Origin: Candidatus Hermodarchaeota archaeon
GTDB lineage: Archaea; Asgardarchaeota; Heimdallarchaeia; Hodarchaeales; Hodarchaeaceae
Assembly: GCA_048886185.1 (NCBI GenBank)
Contig: JBHLKY010000002.1
Coordinates: 60,001 to 92,000 of the forward strand
Reading direction: 5' to 3'
Length of the DNA stretch: 32,000 nt
Both the position numbers and the translations under genes were made by a program. The notes under the pieces were generated by a model that saw only the letters and a list, made by a program, of their open reading frames with translations, was not told the DNA's origin and did not search any database. Positions 12,228-28,035 of this stretch are shown here, one piece after another. Position 1 is the first letter of the stretch. Each line of letters begins with the position of its first letter.

Positions 12228-13613
12228 TTAGTAAATGAAGGGGATTCCAATATCCTCAAGTTCTTTCCGGGTTTTCTGATAAAGATTCAAATATTCAGGA
12301 GAAGGTTTGATCTTTCGGACATCATAGCATTCACGAAAGTCTTTCCCGAGAGGAGCTTCTTCAATATTCTCTTCATAGGTCTTCAAAAGAGTAAGTGTAA
12401 GCTCATTTGCATCTCCTCGAGAGATTTTCTCTATTGCCGCTCCGCATCCAACTTCAGCCGCCATTTTTGCTTCCATTGGAGTAGCATAATTCTTATGCCT
12501 ATTCTTTGCTACAGCCATTTCCCACAGATTTGCTCCGGAAACAACAGATACTAAACCATGAGTTGCTCCTTCTCTTAAAACCATCTCTGTACAGGGACCA
12601 GCAGCTGCAAATCCGTTTGACATCGATACAAAATTACTATTCCGAGATATGGCTTGATAAGTCGTGGAAATTACCCATAAGAGCTCTCGCATTGTATTGC
12701 AAGTGTGTTTTAAGTGGAAGGGAAAGTAATTCATGAAATGGGCTTGGTTAACAAGTAAACCCATTAAATGATAAGCAATACCTACAAGCGTGGTTCCCTC
12801 AGGGCCGCCTGCATATCCTCCAAGAATAGGTCCTGCAAGAGTGCCTACAAAACACCCATAAGTATGGAAATGAACCATCTTGTTTAAGAGAGAGTTATCT
12901 ATTTTGAGCTCTGTTATACTTGCTACGAAGCGTCCATCCGTTAATCGTTCTCCCCATTCAGAATTACTAGCAGCAATCTGTGCAGCATCTGATTCTGCAG
13001 TTCCAACACTTTTAAGGAAGATACCTGGGCGACCAACTCGTCTTGCAGACTCTCGGAACATCATAGCATGAGCAACAGCTCCTTTCACTTCCGAAGGAGA
13101 CCCAGAGCGAATGGGCATCCCCTCAATCTCATCAAGAATGGGGGCACAAACTCCATCAGCGAGAGGTTCTTGTAAGTACGCCATGGACATTGGAACGAAA
13201 ATATCCTCATCACATGTTATATCAGGTGAGAAAAGACAAAATGGTTTATTTGAATCCTCTATTTTTCTACTTGAGATTTCTTTGGAATCTCGGCCAAAAC
13301 CTAATGTAAACTTGCCAGGAAAGTTTCCAAGAGCCTCCTTTATCTCATCTTCGGTAAACAAAATCCTTCGATGAGTATCTGTACATAGAGTGCCAACCTC
13401 GAGGTATAAATCTAACGCAGCGTTCCATAGACTATCAGCTAACGTGTTATCATCTGGAACTGGTGTTGCAGGGTCAAAAGAAATGTCATATTCCTTGATG
13501 ACCCTCCTGAGTGCAGGAACTAAGAGTTTGAGGTCATAATCCTTCTCCAAACATACTGGCCCAGTTTCTGCTCTTTCCAACACTTCATTTATTCGCCAGG
13601 GAGGAGTAACCAT
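12228..13613 (-). CDS. mtmB: Monomethylamine methyltransferase (MtmB) family corrinoid methyltransferase, non-pyrrolysine form
   Basis: Full-length collinearity with Methanosarcina MtmB as I recall it (CTDTHR...TEDEI, GRPG, ELKID, PIxGGYAGGxE, AGPCTEM, MEA, GKxFxECYDV). No in-frame TAG; the Pyl position is Lys201 (AAA, 13013-13011). Confidence 0.92.
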   Translation of the reverse strand: MVTPPWRINEVLERAETGPVCLEKDYDLKLLVPALRRVIKEYDISFDPATPVPDDNTLADSLWNAALDLYLEVGTLCTDTHRRILFTEDEIKEALGNFPGKFTLGFGRDSKEISSRKIEDSNKPFCLFSPDITCDEDIFVPMSMAYLQEPLADGVCAPILDEIEGMPIRSGSPSEVKGAVAHAMMFRESARRVGRPGIFLKSVGTAESDAAQIAASNSEWGERLTDGRFVASITELKIDNSLLNKMVHFHTYGCFVGTLAGPILGGYAGGPEGTTLVGIAYHLMGLLVNQAHFMNYFPFHLKHTCNTMRELLWVISTTYQAISRNSNFVSMSNGFAAAGPCTEMVLREGATHGLVSVVSGANLWEMAVAKNRHKNYATPMEAKMAAEVGCGAAIEKISRGDANELTLTLLKTYEENIEEAPLGKDFRECYDVRKIKPSPEYLNLYQKTRKELEDIGIPFIY

Positions 13614-14276
13614 CTATCTCGCCCTTTTCTCGAGAAGATCCGCTGCTAGTTTCCCTGCTTGGACGGCAGTTTCAGCCCAACCATCGGCACCAATCTCTTC
13701 TTGCCACTGTACCGTAGTGGGGGCACCCCCGATAATCACTATATAGTCATCTCGTTTTCCCAGCGCTTCAAGCAGTTCAATGACTTCTTTCTGGGATACC
13801 ATTGTTGTAGTCATAAGCGCAGAGAGTGCTATTACATCAGCGTCTACTTCTCCAGCTTTTTCAATAAATTGCATAGAGGGAACATCCTTTCCTAAGTCAA
13901 ACACTTCAAAGCCTGAAACCTCGAGCATGATTTTCACGATGTTCTTACCAATCTCATGGATATCCCCATGGACGGTACCGATTACTACCTTCCCTTTCGA
14001 TTCGAGTCGCTCAGTAGTGGATTTCTTTATGTGTTCAGTTAATACCGAGGTAGCTGCCTGCATCGCTTCTGCAGCACCCATGAGCTCGGGAAGAAAAATA
14101 TCCATTTTATCAAATTGATCCCCTATTTGTTCCATTGTAGGACTCAATACCTCATCGATCACTTTTAAAGGATCCACCTGAGCATTTACGAGTTCTTGGG
14201 CTATTTCTTTAGCTTTTTCAGGCTCATACTCCTCTACTGATCGTTTTAAAGCTTCGAATAGACTCTCTATTGTCAT
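13614..14276 (-). CDS. mtmC: Methyltransferase cognate corrinoid protein (MtmC/MtbC/MttC family)
   Basis: N-terminal helical cap. Base-off/His-on B12 motif GTVHGDIHEIGK (DxHxxG), SALMTTT, IGGAP. Directly upstream of the mtmB homolog. Confidence 0.93.
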   Translation of the reverse strand: MTIESLFEALKRSVEEYEPEKAKEIAQELVNAQVDPLKVIDEVLSPTMEQIGDQFDKMDIFLPELMGAAEAMQAATSVLTEHIKKSTTERLESKGKVVIGTVHGDIHEIGKNIVKIMLEVSGFEVFDLGKDVPSMQFIEKAGEVDADVIALSALMTTTMVSQKEVIELLEALGKRDDYIVIIGGAPTTVQWQEEIGADGWAETAVQAGKLAADLLEKRAR

Positions 14277-14379: not shown

Positions 14380-15519
14380 TTACTTGGATAGCTGTGTAGC
14401 TTGTATTGCTAATTTTAATGCTAAAAGACCATTATCCTCTGTAATGACTCGTTGGTGTTTAGGATCACGAATAAATTTGATTTGATCTAATAATAAACTA
14501 CGAACTGCTTGGGCATAAAGCTCCATTTTCTCTAGGGGTGATTCATAATCTAGACGCACATCTTTGGTCACTGTGATGTCTTTTCCACGACCTTTCATTA
14601 GATGCTTTGCTGGATCAATTTCTTTCTCTTTTGTTATTCTCGTGTTCGGACAGATAGCTCTCAACGTGGCTAATTTTTCTTCATCAACGATGCCATTCAC
14701 AGTCAAGACGATTGGGATCCATCCTTCTATAGTTACATCACCAGTTTCAAATAATATTGTGTGTCTTTGTCGATCCAAGTGACTAGGCTGATCAAAGCCA
14801 TGATAATGGTTAGAAATAACATCTGATGACGTATGGCGAAGAAAACAAAATACTCGATCCACTTGAGTGGAATTAGGTCTATTCTGAGAGTATGCCCAAG
14901 TTACTTCTGTTTCCCCAAACCAATAACGGTAGAGATCAAAGAAATGAACTCCATGTTCTATAAAGATCCCCCCACTCTTCTTCTCATCCCAAAACCAATG
15001 ATTTTTATTTAAAGGTTCATCCGTGGCATAATTCTCGAAATATGCATGTAATGGTTCTCCCAACACTCGAGATTGAATGATTTCCTTTACATAATCCACA
15101 ATCGGAACATAACGTAAGACAAAATCAACAGGGATAATTAATTTCTTCTCTTTTGCAAGATTCACCATATCCTCTGCGTCTTCAAGGGATAAGGCTAACG
15201 GTTTCTCACAGAGAACATGCCTATTATACTTTAAGGCTTGCAGGCCGAAAACAGAATGAGTATCAGGAGGAGTCGCAATGTGAACAAGGTTAATCTCGGG
15301 ACTTTGAATTAACAAAGACGGTAGAGGAAACCATTGAATTCCATATTTTTGAGCAGTTTTTTTGGCAAGGTCAATGTCGATATCTGCAACAGCGACTATC
15401 TCAACCTCTTTCATACCTGAATAGGCATCTAAGCAAAATTGACCAAAATTACCGCAACCAATAAGCCCTAATTTGAGTGGAGTATTATCATTCATAGTTA
15501 AACCCAAAATTTTTCCCAT
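14380..15519 (-). CDS. Gfo/Idh/MocA family NAD(P)-dependent oxidoreductase
   Basis: GLIGCGNFG Rossmann motif, HVLCEKPLA, GGIFIEHGVHFFD. Start ATG 15519 or 15495. Confidence 0.92.
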   Translation of the reverse strand: MGKILGLTMNDNTPLKLGLIGCGNFGQFCLDAYSGMKEVEIVAVADIDIDLAKKTAQKYGIQWFPLPSLLIQSPEINLVHIATPPDTHSVFGLQALKYNRHVLCEKPLALSLEDAEDMVNLAKEKKLIIPVDFVLRYVPIVDYVKEIIQSRVLGEPLHAYFENYATDEPLNKNHWFWDEKKSGGIFIEHGVHFFDLYRYWFGETEVTWAYSQNRPNSTQVDRVFCFLRHTSSDVISNHYHGFDQPSHLDRQRHTILFETGDVTIEGWIPIVLTVNGIVDEEKLATLRAICPNTRITKEKEIDPAKHLMKGRGKDITVTKDVRLDYESPLEKMELYAQAVRSLLLDQIKFIRDPKHQRVITEDNGLLALKLAIQATQLSK

Positions 15520-15636
15520 TGACTAAAGATTACATTTGATCATTTAACTCAATGCAGATATGAAATATTTTATTTATTGATTGATCTAAGGAACCTAACT
15601 TTCTCGAAGAAATTTATGAATGAGGAAGGTTCTATA

Positions 15637-17661
15637 CTGGGAAAAGAAAAACTGAATAGTTTAATGGCTGGAATCGCATTAATAGGACTCCTTTGTACCA
15701 ATCCTCTTTCTACATGTTCACAAGTTATAATATCATCCAAATGGTCTTCAGAATTCCGTCCACATGGGGGATTTGTGGACAAAATCATGTTTCATGTGTA
15801 CACTGCGATCGAGACTCCTCTCGCGATGGCAGCGCTTCAAACGGGTGAGATCGACGCTTATGATGAACAAGTACAACAGAATTATCTAGCTGCAGTGGTA
15901 CGGGATGAGAATATTGAAGTAACATTTACACCAAGTGTAAGATATCAGGCATTGACATTGAATTGTGAACGATTTCCTACTAATATCACTGCTTTCCGTC
16001 GGGCGATGGCTTTTGGGTTTGATAAATACAGAGCGAATGTAGAGGTTATCGGTAGCGGAGTTGGACAACCTCAAGACAGTTACATTCCATTGATTATATC
16101 GGAATGGGAAGTGGAAAGTGCGCTCGCTGAACACTTCTATGAATCAGATTATATTTCTGGGAATAGATCACTCGAGAATGCGGGTTTTAAAAATTTGGAT
16201 ATTGATGGCTGGCGGGAGTATGACAAAAACAACAACGGTGTATGGGATCCTGGGATTGATTTAGACGATGATGAATATGTAAATGGAACTATCCTGCAAC
16301 TTTATGCTTTAGAAGGATCTGATCCTGCTATCAGAATGTGTGACATCATGGTGGATGGGCTTGAAGAGATGGGTGTCCGTGCGGAAACTGTAGTAATGGA
16401 TAATGATTTCATACTTGATGCTGTCTTCGCTGGAAATCATTGGTGTGTTTTTTGGATAGAAAGCTGTCCAGTGATTAATATTGCAAAAATCCTATACGAC
16501 CGCTTTAGAACTGGTGCCCAATGGAACAGAGAGCCGTACAACTATTATCACTATAGTAACAGCACGATTGATGCTATCCTTGATAATATGGTAGACGCGA
16601 CGAATATTGAAGATGTAAAGCAATATGCCTTGGATGCCAGCTTACTTTTAACGTTTGAGCAGCCCCAAATCGTTTACTTAAATTATGTAAATATTGGCGC
16701 TCATAGAAATGATGAGTTTGAAGGATTCTTCAAAGCTGCGGGATTAGGTGTCACCAGTGGTGAAAATTGGGCTGTAACAACAAAAATTCATCTGAAGGAG
16801 TCCCTTGGAGGGCCTTATGGCGGAATATTTGATTATTGTTTGTCAGGGGAGATGGGTACTTGGAACCCTTATTTGAAAAAAACGCAGTACGAAGCTACAG
16901 TCTTTCAGTACATCTATGAATACTTATGGAATTTCGACCCATTCACCTGGGATCCTATTCCTGGGTTAGCATACGACTGGGAAATTGAGCAGACGACTGC
17001 GAATGGAGACATCCGTGATGGCCAGAAATTCACCTTCTATTTATACCAGAACGAGACCTGGCATGATGGGGAACACTTCACTGCAGCTGATATTAACCAC
17101 TCTATTTACATGTGGAGAGACAGTCCATTCCATAGTCCCAATATGTGGGATATATATGAAACAGAACTCCCTGATGGGCCAGATGGGCACGTCATTGAAC
17201 TGTATGTTAACGAGACGGGGTACTTTGAGTGGGCGGATACCACACGATTCCTCATCACCCCTAAACACATCTGGGGAGAGGTGGAAAATGTCACCTCGTA
17301 TTCTCCAGAAATCAATCAGGTAATTGGAACGGGGCCATATATGTTACAAACATGGGTACCTGGAGAGTCTATTACTCTTGAACGGCATGAAGATTGGCGA
17401 TGGGATACTCGACATACTGGCAATGGCCACATTTTTTCTACCATAGAAGACGAAATCACTCTAATCCCACCAACAACTTCAGTTCCTACGACTAAAAACA
17501 CTTTCACTCCCAATTCTTCCTCGACACGCTCCTCCTACTCATCAATTTATTTGGTACCATCTTTTGACCTTATCCCTGTACTCCAGATGGTGGAACTTGG
17601 CACCATCCTGTTCTTTGTGATCACTGTAGTGATCATTATTCGACGAAACCAATTGAAATAA
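15637..17661 (+). CDS. ABC family-5 (OppA/DppA-like) substrate-binding protein 1, circularly permuted
   Basis: Motifs ALQxGxID, FRRAMAFGxD, DxDGWRE, WHDGxxFTAxD, GTGPY. Start revised from TTG 15577 to CTG 15637 (SD GAGGAAGGT + 6 nt; in-frame ATG 15616 is an alternative). C-terminal Ser/Thr linker + TM helix + RR. Confidence 0.88.
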   Translation: MGKEKLNSLMAGIALIGLLCTNPLSTCSQVIISSKWSSEFRPHGGFVDKIMFHVYTAIETPLAMAALQTGEIDAYDEQVQQNYLAAVVRDENIEVTFTPSVRYQALTLNCERFPTNITAFRRAMAFGFDKYRANVEVIGSGVGQPQDSYIPLIISEWEVESALAEHFYESDYISGNRSLENAGFKNLDIDGWREYDKNNNGVWDPGIDLDDDEYVNGTILQLYALEGSDPAIRMCDIMVDGLEEMGVRAETVVMDNDFILDAVFAGNHWCVFWIESCPVINIAKILYDRFRTGAQWNREPYNYYHYSNSTIDAILDNMVDATNIEDVKQYALDASLLLTFEQPQIVYLNYVNIGAHRNDEFEGFFKAAGLGVTSGENWAVTTKIHLKESLGGPYGGIFDYCLSGEMGTWNPYLKKTQYEATVFQYIYEYLWNFDPFTWDPIPGLAYDWEIEQTTANGDIRDGQKFTFYLYQNETWHDGEHFTAADINHSIYMWRDSPFHSPNMWDIYETELPDGPDGHVIELYVNETGYFEWADTTRFLITPKHIWGEVENVTSYSPEINQVIGTGPYMLQTWVPGESITLERHEDWRWDTRHTGNGHIFSTIEDEITLIPPTTSVPTTKNTFTPNSSSTRSSYSSIYLVPSFDLIPVLQMVELGTILFFVITVVIIIRRNQLK

Positions 17662-17720
17662 TTCCTTTTCAGATGGAATTTCCTACAGGTCTTAATTACG
17701 ACCCCGAAGTTGGAGAACTA

Positions 17721-17748
17721 CAATTGCGAGAATATTATACTTTATAAA
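17721..17748 (+). promoter_or_regulatory. Conserved promoter element CAATTGC about 20 nt upstream of TATA box TTTATAAA (SBP2)
   Basis: Same motif and spacing upstream of SBP3; degenerate copies upstream of SBP4 and SBP1. Confidence 0.55.
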
Positions 17749-17818
17749 GGGCAAACCCTAGGATACTAGAATTTTCATAGTTTGTTCATCAGGGACGTAT
17801 ATTGAGGAAGGATATATC

Positions 17819-19780
17819 CTGAAAATAGAGACCTTGAGCTGTTTTTTTATTGGATTTATCCTCTTAGGATTTTGCACCTCTAATACTGCTAATCAAACAC
17901 ACTTGGTTATTAAGAGCTCCAAGTGGGCCTCGGAGTTTCGCCCTTATGGGGGATATGTCGACGAGATAGAGTTTGTAATTTTCACAGAAACAGAAATCCC
18001 CCTTGCTATGTTAGCACTCCAAAACGGAGATATTGACGCATATGATGAACGTATATTACAAGATTATCTTGCAGCGCTCGTAAGGGATCAGAATATTGAT
18101 GTAACCTTCACTCCTAGTGTTCGTTATCGAGCACTCACCTTGAATTGTGAGAAATTCCCACTTAATATCACAGCATTCCGTCGAGCGATGGCTTTTGGGT
18201 TTGATAAATACCGAGCGAATGTAGAATGCATTGGAGGTGTTGGCCAACCTCAAGATGGTCACATCCCAATTAGCGCTACTGAATGGGAGATAGACAGTGA
18301 GGTCTCAAATCACTTCTATGAGGCCGATTTTGCCTCAGGAAACGCATCTCTGGAAAATGCTGGCTTTATCGATTTAGACGGTGATGGTTGGCGGGAATTT
18401 GATGCTGATGGTTCCAAAGATTGGTCTGTTGGGGACTTAGACCATGATGCATATGCTGATGGTGATATTATACAACTATATGCCAGTCTTGGATACGATC
18501 CACCGATTAGAGTCTGTAATATCATGGTTGATGGGCTTAGATCTATGGGTATAATGGCTGAAACATTAGTAGATTGGTTTGATTACATGAGTGAATTATG
18601 GTCTGGTAGAGGTTGGGCTCTTTGCTGGACAGAGGGCATTACTATCACTAATCCTTCACAATTGCTATATGACAATTTTCGAACTGATGCAAAATATAAT
18701 AGAGACCCGTATAGCTATTATCACTTCAGTAATGCCACTATTGATCAGGTTCTCGACCAAATGATAAATTCGACCTCCCTTGAAGATACTAAAAGCTATG
18801 CAAAGGAAGCTGCTTCATTACTGGCTTTTGAACAACCTCAGATTGTATGCTACAACGATGTCAATATTAACGCTTATCGAACAGACAAGTTTGAGGGATT
18901 CTTTGAGTTCAAAGGAATTGGTTCTTCGTCAGGAGATAATCCATATCTTATGCCTAAAGTATTCAGAAAGGAATCAGAAGGGGGGCCTTATGGGGGAACG
19001 TTCAAATATTGTTTATCGGGTAAGCTAAACACGCTTAATCCTTATTTATATCAAACTGATTATGATAGAACAGTCTTCCAGAACATCTATGAGACCCTGT
19101 GGAATATCGACCCATTCACTTGGGATCCCATTCCAGGGTTAGCTTATGATTGGGACATCGAACAAACAATTGCCAATGATGATATCCGTGATGGTCAGAA
19201 ATATACTTACTATCTGTATCAGAATGAAACCTGGCATGATGGAACACCATTCACAGCTCAAGACGTTAATGTCTCGATCCTTCAGTGGAGAAGCTCTCCC
19301 CGCAGTGGTCCTGAGATGAAAGACATTTACAAGATCGAAATACCAGATGATTACACCATTGTCATATATGTGAATGAGACTGGTTTCTTCGAGTTTGCTG
19401 ATACTCAAGTTCCATATATAATACCGACTCACATCTATGATCCAAGTCTTGTTGGAAATATCACAGTTTTCAATCCGACACTTGATGATATGATTGGTAC
19501 TGGTCCGTATAAGCTCGCTGCACATGTCTCTGGTGAATATATCAGCCTGGAACACAATACCAACTGGCGTTGGGATAACAGGACTAGAGTCCCGTTAACC
19601 CCTGATGAGTATTATTGGATTTCCTCACAAAGCGAAACGGAAACGTCTTCTTCCCGCACGTCTACCTACTCAGATCACTCGTTTGACCTGCTTCCTGTCA
19701 TCCAGATACTAGAATTAGGCACTATTGTGCTTTTTTTGGTAACCCTGGTAATCATAATCCGACGACATCAACTGAACTAA
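17819..19780 (+). CDS. ABC family-5 substrate-binding protein 2, circularly permuted
   Basis: Same motifs as SBP1. Start revised to CTG 17819 (GAGGAAGGA + 6 nt); TTG 17834 is five codons downstream and removes the basic n-region. Confidence 0.88.
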   Translation: MKIETLSCFFIGFILLGFCTSNTANQTHLVIKSSKWASEFRPYGGYVDEIEFVIFTETEIPLAMLALQNGDIDAYDERILQDYLAALVRDQNIDVTFTPSVRYRALTLNCEKFPLNITAFRRAMAFGFDKYRANVECIGGVGQPQDGHIPISATEWEIDSEVSNHFYEADFASGNASLENAGFIDLDGDGWREFDADGSKDWSVGDLDHDAYADGDIIQLYASLGYDPPIRVCNIMVDGLRSMGIMAETLVDWFDYMSELWSGRGWALCWTEGITITNPSQLLYDNFRTDAKYNRDPYSYYHFSNATIDQVLDQMINSTSLEDTKSYAKEAASLLAFEQPQIVCYNDVNINAYRTDKFEGFFEFKGIGSSSGDNPYLMPKVFRKESEGGPYGGTFKYCLSGKLNTLNPYLYQTDYDRTVFQNIYETLWNIDPFTWDPIPGLAYDWDIEQTIANDDIRDGQKYTYYLYQNETWHDGTPFTAQDVNVSILQWRSSPRSGPEMKDIYKIEIPDDYTIVIYVNETGFFEFADTQVPYIIPTHIYDPSLVGNITVFNPTLDDMIGTGPYKLAAHVSGEYISLEHNTNWRWDNRTRVPLTPDEYYWISSQSETETSSSRTSTYSDHSFDLLPVIQILELGTIVLFLVTLVIIIRRHQLN

Positions 19781-19851
19781 TTCACTTTCAGAAGCATTAA
19801 AAACAGATTCAAATTACTTAAAAGCTTATATTAAGGAAAAAGGCAAAATAA

Positions 19852-19879
19852 CAATTGCAGAAAAATAAAACTTAATTAA
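19852..19879 (+). promoter_or_regulatory. Conserved promoter element CAATTGC 20 nt upstream of TATA-like TTAATTAA (SBP3)
   Basis: Identical spacing to the SBP2 promoter. Confidence 0.55.
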
Positions 19880-19953
19880 GCGAACGAGCTCTAGATCACT
19901 AGAACTTCAGCTTTTGTTACTAAAAGCGGAAATGAAAAGAGGAAGGACTTGTT

Positions 19954-21966
19954 CTGAAAAAAGGGGTATTAAATTATCTTATTATAGGATTTATCCTCCT
20001 AGCATTATGTACCCCAAACACCGTTAGAACAACAACTTTAATTTTAAAGAGCTCTAAGTGGTCCTCGGAGTTCCGCCCTTTTGGCGGATATGTGGACACA
20101 GTCCAGTTCTTAATTTATCCACTAACCGAATATCCTCTACCGATGCTAGCTTTGCAATTGGGAGATATCGATGCATTTGACGAACAGGTTCGGCAAGATT
20201 ACCTTGCTGGACTTCATAGGGACCCAAATATCGAACAAACTTTTACTCCGAGTTTAAGATATCGGGCACTGACCCTAAATTGTGCTAAATTCCCCACCAA
20301 TATCACAGCTTTTCGTCGTGCGATGGCGTTCGGGTTTGATAAAACCCGAGCGAATATCGAATGCATTGGAGGTGTTGGCCAACCTCAAGACAGTCATATT
20401 CCACTAATATCAACAGAGTGGGAAGTTGAAAGTGAACTCCCTGTGCACTTTTATGAGGCAGACTTTGTTGCTGGAAATGCATCACTTGAGAATGCTGGCT
20501 TCACCGACCTAGATGACGATGGTTGGCGTGAATACGATGCAGATGGCTCAGGTACATGGACTGCTGGCGACTTGGACCATACTTCATACACTGATGGTGG
20601 TATCATGGAGCTATATGCAACAGCAGGGTATGACCCTGCTATTAGAGCCTGTGATATCATGGTAGATGGGTTAGAGTCGATGGGTATCCGGTCAACTGTT
20701 GTTGAATTTGATTTACAACAATGGTTTGACTGTTTCTGCTTGCCCGTTCCTAGTGTTACTTGTTGGACAGAAGAAATTTCTATTGCCAATCCCTCAAGAA
20801 TCCTTTATGATAATTTTCATTCAACAGGGGGGAAGTATAACATAGATCCGTACAATTATTATCATTTTAGAAATAATACCATTAATTTTGCTTTGGATCA
20901 AATGATTACTTCCATAACCCTCAATGAAACCAAATACTATGCTCGGGAGGCTGCTAAATTATTAGCTTTTGAACAACCACAGATTGTCGTGTATAATGAC
21001 GTAATTATCAACGCTTATCGCACAGACAGATTTACAGGATTTTTTGAATTCAAAGGACTCGGAACTTCCTCAGGAGAAAATCCATATGTCGCCACAAAGG
21101 TACATCTCAAGGAATCATTAGGGGGACCTTACGGTGGATCCTTCAAATACTGTTTGTCGGGAGAGATGAATACATGGAATCCCTATCAACAAAAAACAAA
21201 ATACGAATCAACAGTCTTTCAATACATCTATGAGACTCTGTGGAATCTTGATCCCCTCACTTGGGATCCCATTCCAGGACTAGCGTATGATTGGAAAATT
21301 GAACAGACCTCCGCAAGTGGAGACATCCGTGAAGGCCAGAAATTCACCTTTTATTTATATCAGGATGAAACTTGGCATGATGGCGAGTCATTCACTGCAG
21401 CTGACGTGAACCACTCCATTTACATGTGGAGAGACAGCCCATATCATACTCCTAAAATGTGGGATATTTACAAGACGGAGCTTCCAGAAGGACCAGATGG
21501 ACACGTCATTGAAATCTATGTAAACGAAACGGGGTATTTTGAGTGGGTGGACACCACGCAATTCTATATCACCCCCAAGCATATCTGGCAAGAAGTAGAG
21601 AATGTCACCGCTTATAATCCAGCTATCAATGAGGTGATTGGAACGGGACCTTACAGGTTGGCCGATTGGGTACCTGGAGAATCAATCACTCTTGAACGAC
21701 ATGAAGACTGGCGATGGGACATTCGTGAAGTAAATTCTTACATTAATGGAGACACTTTTCCTTCAACTACACAACATCCAATAATAACCAGTGATGGTCA
21801 TTATTGGACTTCCTCACAAAGCGAAATGACAACCATTACTTATAACAATACCTACTTAGATTTCTCCATTAACCTGCTATCTGTCTTCCAGATTTTAGAG
21901 CTAGTTACTGTTGCGTTGTTCGTGGTCACTATAGTGATCATTATCCGCCGATACCAAGTGAATTAA
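19954..21966 (+). CDS. ABC family-5 substrate-binding protein 3, circularly permuted
   Basis: The frame is open upstream of the track start (GTG 20092) to a stop at 19933 and encodes a signal peptide collinear with SBP6. The only plausible initiator there is CTG 19954 (GAGGAAGGA + 6 nt). Confidence 0.88.
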   Translation: MKKGVLNYLIIGFILLALCTPNTVRTTTLILKSSKWSSEFRPFGGYVDTVQFLIYPLTEYPLPMLALQLGDIDAFDEQVRQDYLAGLHRDPNIEQTFTPSLRYRALTLNCAKFPTNITAFRRAMAFGFDKTRANIECIGGVGQPQDSHIPLISTEWEVESELPVHFYEADFVAGNASLENAGFTDLDDDGWREYDADGSGTWTAGDLDHTSYTDGGIMELYATAGYDPAIRACDIMVDGLESMGIRSTVVEFDLQQWFDCFCLPVPSVTCWTEEISIANPSRILYDNFHSTGGKYNIDPYNYYHFRNNTINFALDQMITSITLNETKYYAREAAKLLAFEQPQIVVYNDVIINAYRTDRFTGFFEFKGLGTSSGENPYVATKVHLKESLGGPYGGSFKYCLSGEMNTWNPYQQKTKYESTVFQYIYETLWNLDPLTWDPIPGLAYDWKIEQTSASGDIREGQKFTFYLYQDETWHDGESFTAADVNHSIYMWRDSPYHTPKMWDIYKTELPEGPDGHVIEIYVNETGYFEWVDTTQFYITPKHIWQEVENVTAYNPAINEVIGTGPYRLADWVPGESITLERHEDWRWDIREVNSYINGDTFPSTTQHPIITSDGHYWTSSQSEMTTITYNNTYLDFSINLLSVFQILELVTVALFVVTIVIIIRRYQVN

Positions 21967-22024
21967 TTCTTTTTTAATAGAATAATTACATTTCTCAATC
22001 TTTAGATGAATTATGAAAAAGCAT

Positions 22025-22054
22025 CATTTGCGGGAATAGGATGTTTTTTATAAT
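22025..22054 (+). promoter_or_regulatory. CATTTGC + TATA-like TTTATAAT upstream of the SBP4-5-6 unit
   Basis: Variant of the motif seen upstream of SBP2 and SBP3; spacing about 20-22 nt. Confidence 0.45.
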
Positions 22055-22124
22055 TTATTTACTCTTGAATAACCGATCTTTCTTTTTTATTTCGTGGTGA
22101 TTGTGAAAAGAGGAAGGAAATATC

Positions 22125-24080
22125 TCGCAAAAAAGAAAATTACTCACATTAATAATTGTAATTACTCTCCTAGGATTATTTTACCCTAATACCGTTAAAT
22201 CCACATCGTTAGGTAGTCGGAGCCCCAAATGGTCATCGGAATTTCGCCCATATGGAGGTTATGTTGATGAAATCAAGTTTATGATCTATCCTGATGAGGA
22301 AATCCCTCGCGCGATGTTAGCGCTACAAAATGGCGATATTGATGCCTATGATGAGCGCGTTCCGCAAGACTACTTAGCAGCTCTGGTGAGAGATCCAAAT
22401 ATTGAAGTAAGTTTTACACCAAGTGTCCGATACCGAGCTCTCACGCTAAACAGTGACCGATTTCCCTTAAACATCTCTGCGTTTCGTCGGGCTATGGCCT
22501 TCGGGTATGATAAATATCGTGCGAACTTGGAATGCATTGGAGGCGCGGGGTGGCCTCAAGATAGTTACATTCCGATAACTATCACTGAATGGGAAGTCGA
22601 GAGCGAGATGAGTGATCACTTCTATGAAGCAGATTATGTATTAGGCAACAGATCACTTGAAAACGCTGGATTCAAAGATATAGACGGGGATGGGTGGCGG
22701 GAATATGACAAAAACAATAATGGTGTGTGGGATACAGGCATTGACCTGAATGATGATGAATATGCCGATGGTGGGATAATAATACTCTACACAGTTCCTG
22801 GATATGACCCTGCCATCAAGGCGTGTGACATTATGGCAGATGGATTAGAAGCGATGGGGATTCGTAGTGAAGTTTTTGAACCTATTCTTATGCCTTATCC
22901 CTCCGATCATTGGAATCTTCATGTCAATTGTTGGACTGAAGGTATTCCTCTGATTAATCCATCTAAATGTTTGTATGATAACTTTAGAACAGGAGCGATT
23001 TTAAATACTGATCCTTACAACTACTATCACTTCAGTAACAGCACCATTGACGCAGTTTTCGACCAGATGATGGAAGCTACTAGCCTAGAGGACGTAAAGA
23101 CACATGCAAAAGAGGTTAATAGGTTATTAACCTTCGAACAACCGCAGATTGTTGTCTATAATGACGTGAATATTGGTGCTTACAGGAATGACAGGTGTGA
23201 AGGTTGGTTCGAGTTTACTGGATTAGGGCCGACTACGGGTGGTTATACCAAAAACAATCCGTACTGTGCTACCAAATTACATCTGAAGGAATCTTTGGGA
23301 GGACCATTTGGTGGAACGTTAAAGAACTGTTTATCGGGAGAAATGAATACGCGGAATCCCTATTTACTGCAAACAAGATACGATTCAACGGTCTTTCAGT
23401 ACATTTATGAGACCCTGTGGAATATCGACCCATATACCTGGGATCCTATTCCAGGCTTAGCGTATGATTGGGGGATTGAACAGACCACTGCGGGTGGAGA
23501 CATCCGAGATGGCCAAAAGGTCACATTTTACCTGTATGAAAACGAGACATGGCATGATGGAGAACCCTTTACTGCAGCTGACGTAAACCACTCCCTATAT
23601 CTGTGGAAGAGCTCTCCCCGAAGTGGGGTAGAGATGGCAGATATCTATAAAGTTGAGTTACCTAACGGACCCGATGGTCATACTATCGAAATATTTGTGA
23701 ATAAGACTGGATACTTCGAGTGGGCAGACACCACACACTTTTACATCACCCCCGAGCACATCTGGCGTGAGGTGACCAATGTGTCCGCTTTCGTTCCAAC
23801 TAACGATCAGATTGTTGGTACGGGGCCCTATAAGTGGAACGAACATGTCCCTGGAGAGTATATCAGGCTAGTTCGCGATGAGAAGTGGCGGTGGGATATC
23901 CGTGATGTTGGTTATTTGATTGAAAGCACTTATTCTACTCATTCCTCCACGAATGTACCTGCAACTGAAAGCTCTGCCCCAACAAGCACTCCAGGATTTA
24001 CTTCTGTAACCATACTAGTATTCGTTGTTGTTCTCCTTGTCAAGCGTTCAAAAAGAGAAAGAAAGAAGGATTACATATGA
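22125..24080 (+). CDS. ABC family-5 substrate-binding protein 4, circularly permuted; start codon anomalous
   Basis: The frame is open upstream of ATG 22281 to a stop at 22104 and encodes a signal peptide (QKRKLLTLIIVITLLGLFYPN) collinear with SBP6. The codon at the expected start is TCG. TPGF + TM + basic tail. Confidence 0.82.
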   Translation, partial: SQKRKLLTLIIVITLLGLFYPNTVKSTSLGSRSPKWSSEFRPYGGYVDEIKFMIYPDEEIPRAMLALQNGDIDAYDERVPQDYLAALVRDPNIEVSFTPSVRYRALTLNSDRFPLNISAFRRAMAFGYDKYRANLECIGGAGWPQDSYIPITITEWEVESEMSDHFYEADYVLGNRSLENAGFKDIDGDGWREYDKNNNGVWDTGIDLNDDEYADGGIIILYTVPGYDPAIKACDIMADGLEAMGIRSEVFEPILMPYPSDHWNLHVNCWTEGIPLINPSKCLYDNFRTGAILNTDPYNYYHFSNSTIDAVFDQMMEATSLEDVKTHAKEVNRLLTFEQPQIVVYNDVNIGAYRNDRCEGWFEFTGLGPTTGGYTKNNPYCATKLHLKESLGGPFGGTLKNCLSGEMNTRNPYLLQTRYDSTVFQYIYETLWNIDPYTWDPIPGLAYDWGIEQTTAGGDIRDGQKVTFYLYENETWHDGEPFTAADVNHSLYLWKSSPRSGVEMADIYKVELPNGPDGHTIEIFVNKTGYFEWADTTHFYITPEHIWREVTNVSAFVPTNDQIVGTGPYKWNEHVPGEYIRLVRDEKWRWDIRDVGYLIESTYSTHSSTNVPATESSAPTSTPGFTSVTILVFVVVLLVKRSKRERKKDYI

Positions 24081-26056
24081 GGAAAACACATATGTATCTT
24101 TTAATGATCGGAATCGTACTTTTAGGCATTTTATGTCCCATTCCTCAGTCTAAATCAGCGATAGAGGAAAGAGTTCCCACATGGTCATCAGATTTCCGTC
24201 CATATGGAGGGTATGTCGATGAAGTCAAGTTTATAATCTATCCTGATGAGGACATCCCTCTGGCGATATTAGCACTACAAAAAGGGGACATTGATGCCTA
24301 TGATGAGAGTGTTCCACAAGATTACTTAGCAGCTCTTGTGAATGATCCGAACATTGAAGTGACTTTTACACCAAGTGTCAGATACAGAGTCCTCAAGTTA
24401 AATTGTGAGCTTTTCCCCTTAAACATCACCGCATTTCGTCGGGCTTTGGCCTTCGGGTATGATAAATATCGTGCGAACTTGGAATGCATTGGAGGCGCGG
24501 GGTGGCCTCAAGATAGTTACATTCCGATAACTATCACTGAATGGGAAGTCGAGAGCGAGATGAGTGATCACTTCTATGAGGCAGATTATGTGTTAGGCAA
24601 CAGATCACTTAAAAATGCTGGTTTCAAAGACTTAGATGGAGACGGGTGGCGAGAATATGACAAAAACAATAATAGTGTTTGGGATCCAGGGGTTGATTTA
24701 GACGATGATACTTATGCTCAAAGTCATTATACCAATGATATGGGCATCTTGGATATGTTTGTTACAGCAGGATATGACCCTGCTATCAAGGCGTGTGAAA
24801 TAATGGTAGATACTCTTGCAGAAATGGGGATTCGTTCGAAAATCATTGAAATAGACCCGCGTGCTCTCGATTCCTATCCTTCTGATCTTTATCTAAACGG
24901 TGAGGTAATTTGCCAGACTGATGGTATTGCTTTTATTAATACACCTAAATTTCTGTATAATAATTTTGCTACTGGAGGATGGCTTAATACAGATCCCTAC
25001 AATCATTATCATTTTAATAATGACACGATCTCTGCTATTCTTGAAGATATGGTCGCTGCCAGTGATATCAATGAAGTTAAGCAATATGCTCGTGAAGCAA
25101 GCTCACTATTGGCCTTTGAGCAACCACAAATTGTGGTTTACAACGATGTTGACATCAATGCTTACCGTAATGACAGATTTGATGGCTGGTTTGAATTTAG
25201 GGGTGCTGGGGTGTCCAGTGGTGACAACTGGGCCTGTGCAACCAAGGTACACCTCAAAGAGTCCCATGTTGGGCCTTATGGTGGAAGCTTCTACTATTGT
25301 TTATCTGATAACATGGGAACCTTAAATCCCTATTACCAAAAAACGGGTTACGAAGATACTGTTTTTCAGTACATCTATGAAAAACTATGGAATATCGATC
25401 CAATTACCTGGGATCCTATTCCAGGATTAGCGTACAATTGGGAGATTGAGCAGACCTCTGCAGGTGGAGACAATCAAGATGGCCAAAAGTTCACGTTCTA
25501 CCTGTATGAGAACGAGACATGGCATGATGGGGAACCCTTTACTGCAGCCGACGTGAATCACTCCATCTACCTGTGGAGGAGCTCTCCTCGAAGTAAAGTA
25601 GAAATGGCAGATATCTATAAAGTTGAGTTGCCCGAGGGGCCAGAAGGCCATATTATCGAAATTTTTGTCAATAAGACAGGATATTTTAAGTGGGCGGATA
25701 CCACGCGCTTTTACATTACCCCTGAACATATCTGGCGCGATGTGACAAATATATCAGCATTCATTCCGACTGACGATCAAACGATTGGCACGGGGCCTTA
25801 TATGTGGAACGAACATGTCCCTGGAGAGTACATCAGTCTTCTTCGTCACGAGGATTGGCGGTGGGATATCCGTGACAAAGATAATCATTTTATAAGTCAG
25901 TTCGGATCCACTCAATGCTCGACATCAATTACGATATCTCAGAGCTCTATCCCAACAACCAGTCCAGGGTTCACTGCTTTAACGTCACTAGCGTTATTAG
26001 TAGGTGCTCTCTTTGTTAAACTGTCGAAAAGAAAAGGAAAGGAGAATTACCCATGA
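24077..26056 (+). CDS. ABC family-5 substrate-binding protein 5, circularly permuted
   Basis: ATG overlaps the SBP4 stop (ATGA). SD AAGAAGGA + 6 nt. Signal peptide; SPGF + TM + basic tail. Confidence 0.9.
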   Translation: MRKTHMYLLMIGIVLLGILCPIPQSKSAIEERVPTWSSDFRPYGGYVDEVKFIIYPDEDIPLAILALQKGDIDAYDESVPQDYLAALVNDPNIEVTFTPSVRYRVLKLNCELFPLNITAFRRALAFGYDKYRANLECIGGAGWPQDSYIPITITEWEVESEMSDHFYEADYVLGNRSLKNAGFKDLDGDGWREYDKNNNSVWDPGVDLDDDTYAQSHYTNDMGILDMFVTAGYDPAIKACEIMVDTLAEMGIRSKIIEIDPRALDSYPSDLYLNGEVICQTDGIAFINTPKFLYNNFATGGWLNTDPYNHYHFNNDTISAILEDMVAASDINEVKQYAREASSLLAFEQPQIVVYNDVDINAYRNDRFDGWFEFRGAGVSSGDNWACATKVHLKESHVGPYGGSFYYCLSDNMGTLNPYYQKTGYEDTVFQYIYEKLWNIDPITWDPIPGLAYNWEIEQTSAGGDNQDGQKFTFYLYENETWHDGEPFTAADVNHSIYLWRSSPRSKVEMADIYKVELPEGPEGHIIEIFVNKTGYFKWADTTRFYITPEHIWRDVTNISAFIPTDDQTIGTGPYMWNEHVPGEYISLLRHEDWRWDIRDKDNHFISQFGSTQCSTSITISQSSIPTTSPGFTALTSLALLVGALFVKLSKRKGKENYP

Positions 26057-28035
26057 AAAAAGGAAGTTTATTAAGCTTATTAATAGGACTTACCCTTCTA
26101 GGACTTTTTTACCCGAATACTGTTCAAACAACACCCTCAATTATAAGGAGTCCCAAATGGTCATCGGAATTTCGCCCCTATCCTGGCGGATACGTGGATG
26201 AGATCGAGTTTATGATCTATCCTGATGAGGATATCCCTCTGGCGATATTAGCACTACAAAATGGGGACATTGATGTGTATGATGAGCGGGTTCCGCAAGA
26301 TTACTTAGCAGGTCTGGTGAGTGATCCGAATATTGAGGTGACCTTTACGCCAAGTGTCCGATATAGAGCCCTCACGCTAAATTGTGACCGATTCCCCTTA
26401 AACATCACCGCGTTCCGTCGAGCTATGGCCTTCGGATATGATAAATCCCGAGCAAACAGGGAATGCATTGGAGGTGCGGGGTGGCCTCAAGATAGTTACA
26501 TTCCGATAACTATCTCTGAATGGGAAGTCGAAAGCGAGATGAGTGATCACTTCTATGAGGCAGATTATGTGTTAGGCAACAGATCACTTGAAAACGCTGG
26601 GTTCAAAGATTTAGACGGAGATGGGTGGCGGGAATACGACGCTAATGGTAATGATGCCTGGGATGTTGGTGTTGACTTAGATGATGATGAATACGCTGAT
26701 ATGACGCCTGGAACCTCATCCATAATAGAAATGTATGCTTTAGCTGCTTATGATCCATCTATCAAAGCCATTGATATCATGGTAGATGGATTAGAAGAAA
26801 TGGGAGTTCGATGTTACGCTTATCCTCCTGATTTCTTACCCACCCCACCAGATCCCATGGCCTTTGATGTCCTGTGCTGGAATGAGGGCATTCCATTAAC
26901 CAATCCATCCAAATGCCTGTATGAAAACTTCAGAACGGATGCTAAGTATAATGGAGGCCTCTATAACTACTATCACTTCAGTAACAGCACAATTGACGCA
27001 GTTTTTGATCAGATGATAGAAGCTACCACTTTAGAGGATGTAAAGACATATGCGAAAGAGGTCAATAGATTTTTAACCTTCGAACAACCGCAGATTGTTG
27101 TCTATAATGACGTGAATATTGGTACTCACCGGAATGACAGATTTGATGGTTGGTTTGAGTTTACGGGGTTGGGACCGACTACAGGTGGTTACATTCAGAA
27201 TAATCCATACTGTGCTACCAAATTACATCTGAAGGAATCTTTGGGAGGACCATTTGGTGGAACATTGTACTACTGTTTATCTGGCACGATAGATACTCTA
27301 AATCCTTATTTACAAAAATGGGATAGAGAAGAAACTGTCTTTCAGTATATCTATGATCAACTATGGAGTATCGATCCATATACATGGGATCCCATTCCAG
27401 GATTAGCGTATGATTGGGAGATTGAACAGACCACTGCGGGTGGAGACATCCGAGATGGCCAAAAGTTCACGTTCTACTTGTATGAAAACGAGACATGGCA
27501 TGATGGGGAACCCTTTACTGCAGCCGACGTAAACCACTCCCTATATCTGTGGAAGAGCTCTCCCCGAAGTGGGATAGAGATGGCGGAAATCTACAAAGTT
27601 GAGTTACCCGATGGATCCGAAGGCCATACTATCGAAATATATGTCAACAAGACAGGATATTTCGAGTGGGCAGACACCACCTGGTTTTACATCACCCCCG
27701 AGCATATCTGGCGTGAGGTGACCAATGTATCAGCATTCATCCCAATTAACAATCAGATTATTGGCACGGGGCCTTATAAATGGGAAAATCATGTCCCTGG
27801 AGAGTATATCAGGCTAGTTCGCGGTGAGAATTGGCGATGGGATATCCGTGATGGTGATTGTACACAAATTAAAAACACTTATTCTACTCAGCCCTCCACG
27901 AGTATACCTTCAACTGAAAGCTCCGCCCCAACAAGCACAACAACAGGCACTCCAGGATTTACTTCTGTTACCATACTAGTATTCGCTGTGGCTCTCCTTG
28001 TCAAGTGTTCAAAAAGAGAAGGAAAGAAGGATTAG
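26053..28035 (+). CDS. ABC family-5 substrate-binding protein 6, circularly permuted
   Basis: ATG overlaps the SBP5 stop (ATGA). Signal peptide; TPGF + TM + basic tail. Confidence 0.9.
   Translation: MKKGSLLSLLIGLTLLGLFYPNTVQTTPSIIRSPKWSSEFRPYPGGYVDEIEFMIYPDEDIPLAILALQNGDIDVYDERVPQDYLAGLVSDPNIEVTFTPSVRYRALTLNCDRFPLNITAFRRAMAFGYDKSRANRECIGGAGWPQDSYIPITISEWEVESEMSDHFYEADYVLGNRSLENAGFKDLDGDGWREYDANGNDAWDVGVDLDDDEYADMTPGTSSIIEMYALAAYDPSIKAIDIMVDGLEEMGVRCYAYPPDFLPTPPDPMAFDVLCWNEGIPLTNPSKCLYENFRTDAKYNGGLYNYYHFSNSTIDAVFDQMIEATTLEDVKTYAKEVNRFLTFEQPQIVVYNDVNIGTHRNDRFDGWFEFTGLGPTTGGYIQNNPYCATKLHLKESLGGPFGGTLYYCLSGTIDTLNPYLQKWDREETVFQYIYDQLWSIDPYTWDPIPGLAYDWEIEQTTAGGDIRDGQKFTFYLYENETWHDGEPFTAADVNHSLYLWKSSPRSGIEMAEIYKVELPDGSEGHTIEIYVNKTGYFEWADTTWFYITPEHIWREVTNVSAFIPINNQIIGTGPYKWENHVPGEYIRLVRGENWRWDIRDGDCTQIKNTYSTQPSTSIPSTESSAPTSTTTGTPGFTSVTILVFAVALLVKCSKREGKKD

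Follow-up and report, generated by a model that had tools for sequence, protein, structure and literature searches.

An MtmB-family gene and its corrinoid partner

The window analyzed here, the whole 32,000-nt stretch at positions 60,001-92,000 of contig JBHLKY010000002.1 (Candidatus Hermodarchaeota archaeon, assembly GCA_048886185.1), contains two abutting genes on the minus strand, one encoding a corrinoid protein of the MtxC type (P0272, 220 amino acids, positions 13614..14276) and the other a putative substrate-specific methyltransferase (MT1) of the MtmB family (P0001, 461 amino acids, positions 12228..13613). P0001 lacks pyrrolysine (Pyl), the characteristic residue of monomethylamine methyltransferases, and belongs to a clade that has Lys in its place.

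The methyltransferase reading frame has no interruption across its 461 codons, and the product matches the Pfam MtmB family PF05369 over the full length (E-value 1.6e-101, 340.8 bits at a gathering cut-off of 25 bits, profile positions 3-450 of 450). Among solved structures, phmmer finds MtmB1 from Methanosarcina barkeri alone (PDB 1L2Q, 1NTH and 1TV2, E-value about 1e-74), the identity of P0001 to M. barkeri MtmB being 30-34%, and none of the NCBIfam models matches P0001 at E-value 1e-5. In comparisons with ten orthologs and paralogs, the ratio of nonsynonymous to synonymous substitution rates (dN/dS) is 0.03-0.09 and synonymous sites are almost saturated; the gene is under strong purifying selection. 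Metagenome contigs from four runs are identical to the gene in every letter, with no variant observed. The runs listed as containing the stretch are these four DNA runs and no RNA run; they come from one sediment study, probably the source of the assembly, and are not independent of it. In all four runs, the assembly-graph contigs are interrupted at positions 13468-13502 of the window by a 35-base piece of approximately double depth, which a paralog, for example the copy on contig C19 of the same genome, may have in common with the gene.

The corrinoid protein is recognized by the Pfam domains B12-binding_2 and B12-binding, and carries DIHEIG, an instance of the DxHxxG cobalamin ligand motif. 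Its best NCBIfam matches, to the "methyltransferase cognate corrinoid protein" model (207 bits) and to an MtgC-like model (206 bits), are both under the respective cut-offs. The TAG stop codon of the corrinoid gene abuts the ATG of the methyltransferase gene in the same frame (13608-13622, AGA TAG ATG). This junction is most simply explained as a plain stop with translational coupling, although readthrough would fuse both proteins, since no PylS was found above the cut-off in the 96% complete genome (the best match to TIGR02367 has 26 bits, the cut-off being 178). The abutting pair is conserved in 69 of 88 related loci from the clades with Lys or Gln at the Pyl position, and in 19 of the 22 loci left after removal of redundancy at 88% identity. 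Moreover, the corrinoid gene is the only recurring neighbour, as each of the other Pfam families is found in at most 3 of the 22 non-redundant loci.

Amino acid substitutions in the catalytic pocket

A preliminary description of this stretch, made from its letters, had presented the gene as an MtmB homolog with Lys at the Pyl position and with three active-site Glu residues replaced in an otherwise intact scaffold, and the family match given above, together with the alignment, confirms it in all these respects. In particular, phmmer pairs GRPGIFL-K-SVGTAES of P0001 without gaps with GRPGMGV-X-GPETSLS of M. barkeri MtmB1, where X is pyrrolysine in 1L2Q, and Lys201 (codon AAA, read 13013-13011; positions 13011..13013, minus strand) falls in the column of Pyl202, encoded by UAG. 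Pyl-type mtmB genes were recovered with a back-translated pattern around UAG and a family search of 151 Methanosarcinaceae genomes, and in all ten such genes aligned with MAFFT the in-frame TAG is in the column of Lys201. A TAG in place of the Lys201 codon, named earlier as an observation that would speak against this assignment, is not seen in the contigs of the four runs (the probable source of the assembly), which show AAA. Some orthologs encode this Lys by AAA and others by AAG; therefore, selection acts on the residue.

The same alignment places Gly204 (13002..13004) opposite Glu205 of MtmB1, Phe229 (12927..12929, in barrel strand 227-231) opposite Glu229, and Leu259 (12837..12839, in barrel strand 255-260) opposite Glu259, all codons being on the minus strand, while His248 and Pro262 are paired with the same residues at the same numbers, and the motifs ELKID, GGYAGG and AGPCTEM are kept. 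In 42 UAG-containing MtmB frames, Glu205 and Glu259 are present in all sequences and Glu229 in 41. Since these residues are near-invariant in Pyl-type enzymes, Gly204, Phe229 and Leu259 are a real departure from them. The three Glu residues are those which we take to line the methylamine site of MtmB, as they are said to do in the work of Hao et al. from 2002 and 2004. One shorter relative, P0153 (199 amino acids, ending near the Pyl column), was considered as a possible UAG-containing sequence and rejected, as its end diverges before GRPG, which indicates a truncation or a frameshift.

The AlphaFold2 model of P0001, built from an alignment of 138 sequences, has a mean predicted local distance difference test (pLDDT) score of 96.8 and a predicted template modeling (pTM) score of 0.95. 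Compared by Foldseek with 1TV2, 1L2Q and 1NTH, it gives template modeling (TM) scores of 0.94-0.95 with a root-mean-square deviation (rmsd) of 1.5 A over 454 columns; the next matches, structures of the MttB family, are far lower (TM about 0.5). In the model, Lys201 is the C-terminal residue of barrel strand 199-201, with Phe229 and Leu259 in the next two strands, and Pyl202 of MtmB sits on a barrel strand as well (PMC9842639). Thus, the predicted position of Lys201 is in the catalytic pocket. A location outside the pocket, which the preliminary description had allowed for, does not agree with the model and its superposition on MtmB, where Lys201 ends a central barrel strand. The pocket itself is non-acidic: it is largely hydrophobic (Phe199, Leu200, Phe229 and Leu259), with Lys201, His248 and Glu207 in addition.

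Clades with Lys and Gln at position 201

The residue at the Pyl column was scored on a phylogeny, as had been proposed earlier for a check. In the FastTree phylogeny of 267 MtmB-family members, P0001 belongs to a clade of 54 tips (support 1.0) with Lys201 in 54 of 54 sequences, further referred to as the K clade. It is nested within a larger clade of 102 tips (support 0.96), where most of the remaining sequences have Gln in this column (GRPGIFLQGVGTAQS; the Q clade), and which takes in Bathyarchaeia and a metagenome-assembled genome (MAG) labelled [Eubacterium] cellulosolvens. By parsimony, Gln appears to be the ancestral state, and Lys would have originated in the main clade as well as in a small number of isolated sequences. 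In more distant branches the column is occupied by Val, Thr, Ala, His, Asn, Gly and other residues; the Gly-type representatives are outside the K and Q clades, with 29-40% identity to P0001.

All named members of the K clade are Asgard archaea. The 52 nearest database proteins have 78-89% identity to P0001, and the named ones among them come from Hodarchaeales, Heimdallarchaeota and "Promethearchaeota". The motif GRPGIFLKSVGTAES is invariant in the 53 sequences at least 78% identical (P0001 included), apart from two single substitutions outside Lys201. The distribution is patchy: a K-clade ortholog is present in 7 of 151 evenly sampled Asgard genomes, and in two genera of different families, namely in three of six genomes of the genus to which the window belongs and in three of five genomes of one genus from another family. 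The genome encodes three Pyl-free MtmB paralogs: P0001, and a second Lys-type and a His-type protein on contig C19. In general, Pyl-free MtmB homologs are numerous, with 232 clusters at 50% identity reaching E-value 1e-30.

The K and Q clades have Phe199, Leu200, Gly204, Phe229, His248 and Leu259 in common, and strict switches between them are confined to five columns, 79, 169, 201, 376 and 407. Position 376 of P0001 is Tyr (12486..12488, minus strand), and it switches together with position 201: the pair Lys201/Tyr376 is found in 53 sequences, and Gln201/Arg376 in 43. Elsewhere, this column has Arg in the neighbouring clades and Lys in Pyl-type MtmB. The covariation suggests that a single positive charge is kept in the pocket and has been relocated between the two positions, which would fit an anionic or strongly polar group of the substrate. 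Hence, Lys201 most likely serves, as a pocket residue specific to this clade, to bind or position the substrate, possibly via a carboxylate or another polar group.

A more specific role can be suggested from the structure of pyrrolysine, which is a lysine with its epsilon-nitrogen amide-bonded to a methyl-pyrroline carboxylate. Lys201 could be regarded as the lysine half of this residue: a free cyclic or small N-methyl amino acid bearing a carboxylate would form a salt bridge with Lys201 in the space of the missing ring, so that the enzyme and the substrate together would recreate the Pyl-methylammonium adduct non-covalently, the charge being carried by Arg376 in the Gln sister clade. Candidate donors would then be compounds of the N-methylproline or proline-betaine type and of the sarcosine or N-methylalanine type. 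We consider this speculative proposal rather unlikely, but if true, it would give this Asgard group an oxygen-free route for demethylation of N-methyl amino acids, and would provide a concrete structural model relating Pyl-free enzymes to Pyl enzymes.

Gene neighbourhood and other methyl-transfer genes

Upstream of the corrinoid gene, at a distance of 103 nt and on the same strand, there is a gene for an NAD(P) oxidoreductase of the GFO/IDH/MocA family according to Pfam (14380..15519), which is possibly part of the operon. Its presence is not conserved in the related loci, and the nearest solved relatives of its product are sugar and inositol dehydrogenases, with weak scores. Downstream of the methyltransferase gene, the open reading frame (ORF) P0271 (11094..12089, minus strand, 331 amino acids) encodes a protein with a Cys-rich C-terminus (CHCPW...CNCSGG...C) and a weak match to DUF6144 (Pfam, E-value 2e-05, below the cut-off). 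No counterpart of P0271 was found beside MtmB genes in the related loci, and its membership in the methyl-transfer system is doubtful. A gene for a class I methyltransferase dependent on S-adenosylmethionine (SAM), assigned by Pfam, is located about 2 kb downstream of the MtmB-family gene.

Further upstream, at positions 15577-28035 of the window, six tandem paralogs of family-5 solute-binding proteins are transcribed divergently, 57 nt from the oxidoreductase, corrinoid and MtmB genes. Another paralog of this family is located near the second Lys-type MtmB gene on contig C19; such an array has not been seen beside the orthologs in other genomes.

Three arrangements are observed in the K clade. 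One is the corrinoid-MtmB pair, as in the window; in another, an M20 peptidase gene is followed by MtmB, Ada/MGMT and, at some distance, a His-type MtmB; in the third, MtmB is between genes for an enolase resembling acid-sugar dehydratases and an enzyme dependent on thiamine pyrophosphate (TPP). The enolase-superfamily neighbour was considered as the proline-betaine epimerase HpbD, and this was rejected because of its resemblance to acid-sugar dehydratases. More generally, the hints at the substrate given by the neighbours are in conflict, pointing to amino-acid metabolism in some loci and to sugar-acid metabolism in others, and none of them was adopted. In the Gln sister clade (L060:8226-11383, L151:1171-4508 and about 19 related metagenome loci), a PurM/HypE-like gene with AIRS and AIRS_C domains is directly upstream of the corrinoid-MtmB pair, and in one lineage this is followed by genes for a sugar-type transporter of the major facilitator superfamily (MFS), a zinc-ribbon ORF, a DUF2207-like protein and a radical SAM/SPASM protein; many of the AIRS-bearing loci may represent one lineage.

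Other components of a methyl-transfer system are scattered over the genome. It encodes one activase of the RACo/RamA type (RamA/AcsV-type) on contig C23, four distant MtaA/UroD-like proteins, and only two full-length corrinoid proteins of the MtxC type plus one shorter B12-binding ORF, and no MtrH was found in it. On contig C7 (121000-136000; L145:4925-10664), genes for a GFO/IDH/MocA protein, a corrinoid protein, a protein with the homocysteine-S-methyltransferase domain (PF02574), a Pyl-free MttB and an Ldh_2 protein are on the same strand. This cluster could encode a corrinoid-dependent route by which a quaternary amine donates methyl groups to homocysteine or another thiol, and it supplies a candidate second methyltransferase for the system of the window. 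The GFO/IDH/MocA protein encoded ahead of the C7 corrinoid gene and the one in the window have 29% identity, in the N-terminal part only.

On contig C19 (L144:8077-13770), the second Lys-type MtmB gene is preceded by an M20 peptidase gene and followed by Ada-Zn/HTH_18, MGMT, PEMT and the His-type MtmB genes, the last two on the minus strand. The arrangement is syntenic with that in a complete Heimdallarchaeota genome (L003). No corrinoid gene is found near the C19 MtmB genes, and the corrinoid protein of the window probably serves these two paralogs as well.

Proposed function and alternatives

The analysis suggests, with a probability of about 0.7, that P0001 is the substrate-specific methyltransferase of a Pyl-independent corrinoid system, acting on a methyl donor other than monomethylamine. 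The triosephosphate isomerase (TIM) barrel enzyme would bind a methylated compound in its central pocket and dock the corrinoid protein, encoded by the gene directly ahead of its own, in the Co(I) form, so that the methyl group is passed to cobalt. The activase encoded elsewhere in the genome would keep the corrinoid reduced, and a second methyltransferase, also encoded elsewhere, would pass the methyl group on, the candidates being the homocysteine-S-methyltransferase-domain protein from contig C7 and one of the four MtaA/UroD-like proteins. Lys201 would position the substrate, not serve as a covalent catalyst. Monomethylamine is a very unlikely donor, because P0001 has neither pyrrolysine, the electrophile, nor the three conserved Glu residues, and the pocket appears remodelled and non-acidic. 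Of the two ideas in the preliminary description, the pocket for a non-methylamine donor thus agrees with our data, a polar or anionic donor being consistent with Lys201 and with the 201/376 pattern, while the conversion of Lys into a Pyl-like imine does not.

There are published precedents for Pyl-free MtmB proteins as active MT1 enzymes with other substrates. MtqB from Methanococcoides methylutens Q3c demethylates tetramethylammonium and choline, with a trace of monomethylamine activity (PMC13044021, 2026); EmtA from Denitratisoma methylates estradiol (bioRxiv 10.1101/714501); and AbeA from Phosphitispora sp. TUW77 is a 1-dehydrotestosterone C-19 demethylase (PMC11912376). The earlier statement that no substrate had been characterized for a Pyl-free MtmB is outdated by these studies. 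The occurrence of Pyl-free MtmBs in Asgard archaea has also been remarked upon (PMC13044021).

Several observations weigh against the proposed function. The direction of the transfer is assumed, and EmtA, a member of the same family, transfers the methyl group onto its substrate. The wider clade can dispense with Lys, since Gln, Val, Thr, Ala and His are also found at this position, and the charge swap is not strict: Lys201 is combined with Arg376 in three sequences that fall outside the main K clade. Moreover, no second methyltransferase, activase or transporter gene adjoins the methyltransferase gene, and the neighbourhood is not conserved beyond the corrinoid gene; therefore, the donor cannot be read from the context.

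Chemistry of the EmtA and AbeA kind, in which the corrinoid exchanges a methyl group with a bulky hydrophobic carbon or oxygen center, possibly in the methylating direction, is unlikely in our view. It would be in line with the action of both these Pyl-free family members on steroids, with the largely hydrophobic pocket formed by Phe199, Leu200, Phe229 and Leu259, and with the SAM-dependent methyltransferase gene downstream; yet no genes similar to EmtC, EmtD or AbeC are adjacent in the operon of the window, no organism with EmtA or AbeA is among the best 120 named homologs (identity at least 56%), and the conserved Lys201, Glu207 and His248 point to a polar ligand. A tetramethylammonium or choline:corrinoid methyltransferase is distinctly unlikely. 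Though a small-molecule N-methyl donor has been demonstrated for MtqB alone among Pyl-free MtmBs (PMC13044021), and a quaternary ammonium group could be accommodated in an aromatic and hydrophobic pocket, a cationic Lys would be unfavourable for a permanently cationic substrate, and the MtqB-like proteins of Methanosarcinaceae, which have Met at the Pyl column and retain Glu229, are too dissimilar to P0001 (28-29% identity) and distant in the tree.

The remaining two explanations concern monomethylamine and covalent catalysis. NCBI names homologs of P0001 "monomethylamine:corrinoid methyltransferase", and both family membership and the trace activity of MtqB (PMC13044021) agree with this annotation; it is nevertheless very improbable for P0001, given the absence of UAG and Pyl and of PylS in the 96% complete genome, the loss of all three Glu residues invariant in Pyl enzymes, and the lack of the NCBIfam match mentioned above. 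It is just as improbable that Lys201 acts as a covalent catalyst, either after post-translational conversion into a Pyl-like imine or as a Schiff base with a carbonyl-bearing substrate. Lys201 does occupy the exact position of Pyl at the C-terminal end of a barrel strand, where Schiff-base lysines of TIM barrels usually are, and it is invariant in the 54 sequences. Still, the sister clade combines Gln, a residue incapable of such chemistry and apparently ancestral, with a pocket that is identical in other respects; no modifying enzyme recurs beside K-clade genes; and the profile search for PylS in the 96% complete genome revealed no pyl genes.

Identification of the donor would have several consequences, given that annotation describes most Pyl-free MtmB homologs as monomethylamine methyltransferases and that the substrate is known for only three branches. 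It would correct this widespread annotation, show which methylated compounds can be used by these relatives of eukaryotes, and provide a test of whether the substrates of Pyl-free enzymes resemble the adduct of Pyl and its substrate.

Comparison with known systems

P0001 and its partner resemble MtmB1/MtmC from M. barkeri in the Pfam family, the length, the TIM-barrel fold, the conserved elements GRPG, ELKID, His248, Pro262, GGYAGG and AGPCTEM, and the corrinoid gene next door. The differences are in the active site and the host: MtmB1 has Pyl encoded by UAG, together with Glu205, Glu229 and Glu259, whereas P0001 has Lys encoded by AAA and Gly, Phe and Leu in place of the Glu residues, in the genome of a non-methanogenic Asgard archaeon without PylS.

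The Pyl-free part of the MttB family (MtgB, MtpB, MtcB and MtyB, acting on quaternary amines) offers a parallel, being Pyl-free members of a Pyl family that take substrates with an activated nitrogen of their own, and the genome considered here encodes one such MttB with its own corrinoid protein. However, MttB proteins form an unrelated sequence family, PF06253, and the structural match to them is that of a general barrel (TM about 0.5). The chloromethane methyltransferase CdmB, which has Asgard homologs, was considered as a relative and rejected, since it is a protein of the UroD superfamily and no member of MtmB.

EmtA and AbeA are similar to P0001 as Pyl-free catalytic subunits of the MtmB family working with MtmC-like corrinoid proteins, but they are bacterial, act on carbon-bound methyl groups of steroids, and are encoded in operons with EmtCD or AbeC. 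Their identity to P0001 is below 56%, as their organisms are not among its best 120 matches.

MtqB/MtqC offers another comparison, being a Pyl-free MT1 of the MtmB family with its own corrinoid protein, by which the family is known to be functional without pyrrolysine. MtqB has been described as a protein of about 459 amino acids with a high MtmB-profile score (PMC13044021), and a conserved Pyl-free, high-scoring MtmB of about this length was recovered from five Methanosarcinaceae genomes; we infer from the host family, the length and the profile score that these genes are MtqB. Three Methanosarcinaceae genomes (G012, G040 and G081; L053-L059) have, besides these and the Pyl-type copies, other Pyl-free MtmB paralogs in which the Pyl column is occupied by Val, Ile, Ser or Leu. 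The MtqB-like signature comprises Met at the Pyl column, a retained Glu229 and AGCCTDMM, whereas P0001 has Lys201, Phe229 and AGPCTEM, and the MtqB-like sequences are in a distant part of the FastTree phylogeny together with the Pyl enzymes. Judging by the low identity, the different signature and the distant position in the tree, the clade of P0001 is not MtqB. P0001 belongs to a known, sparsely characterized group of Pyl-free MtmB enzymes, and the features specific to its clade, as seen in the alignment, are the invariant Lys at the Pyl column and the covariation of this residue with position 376.

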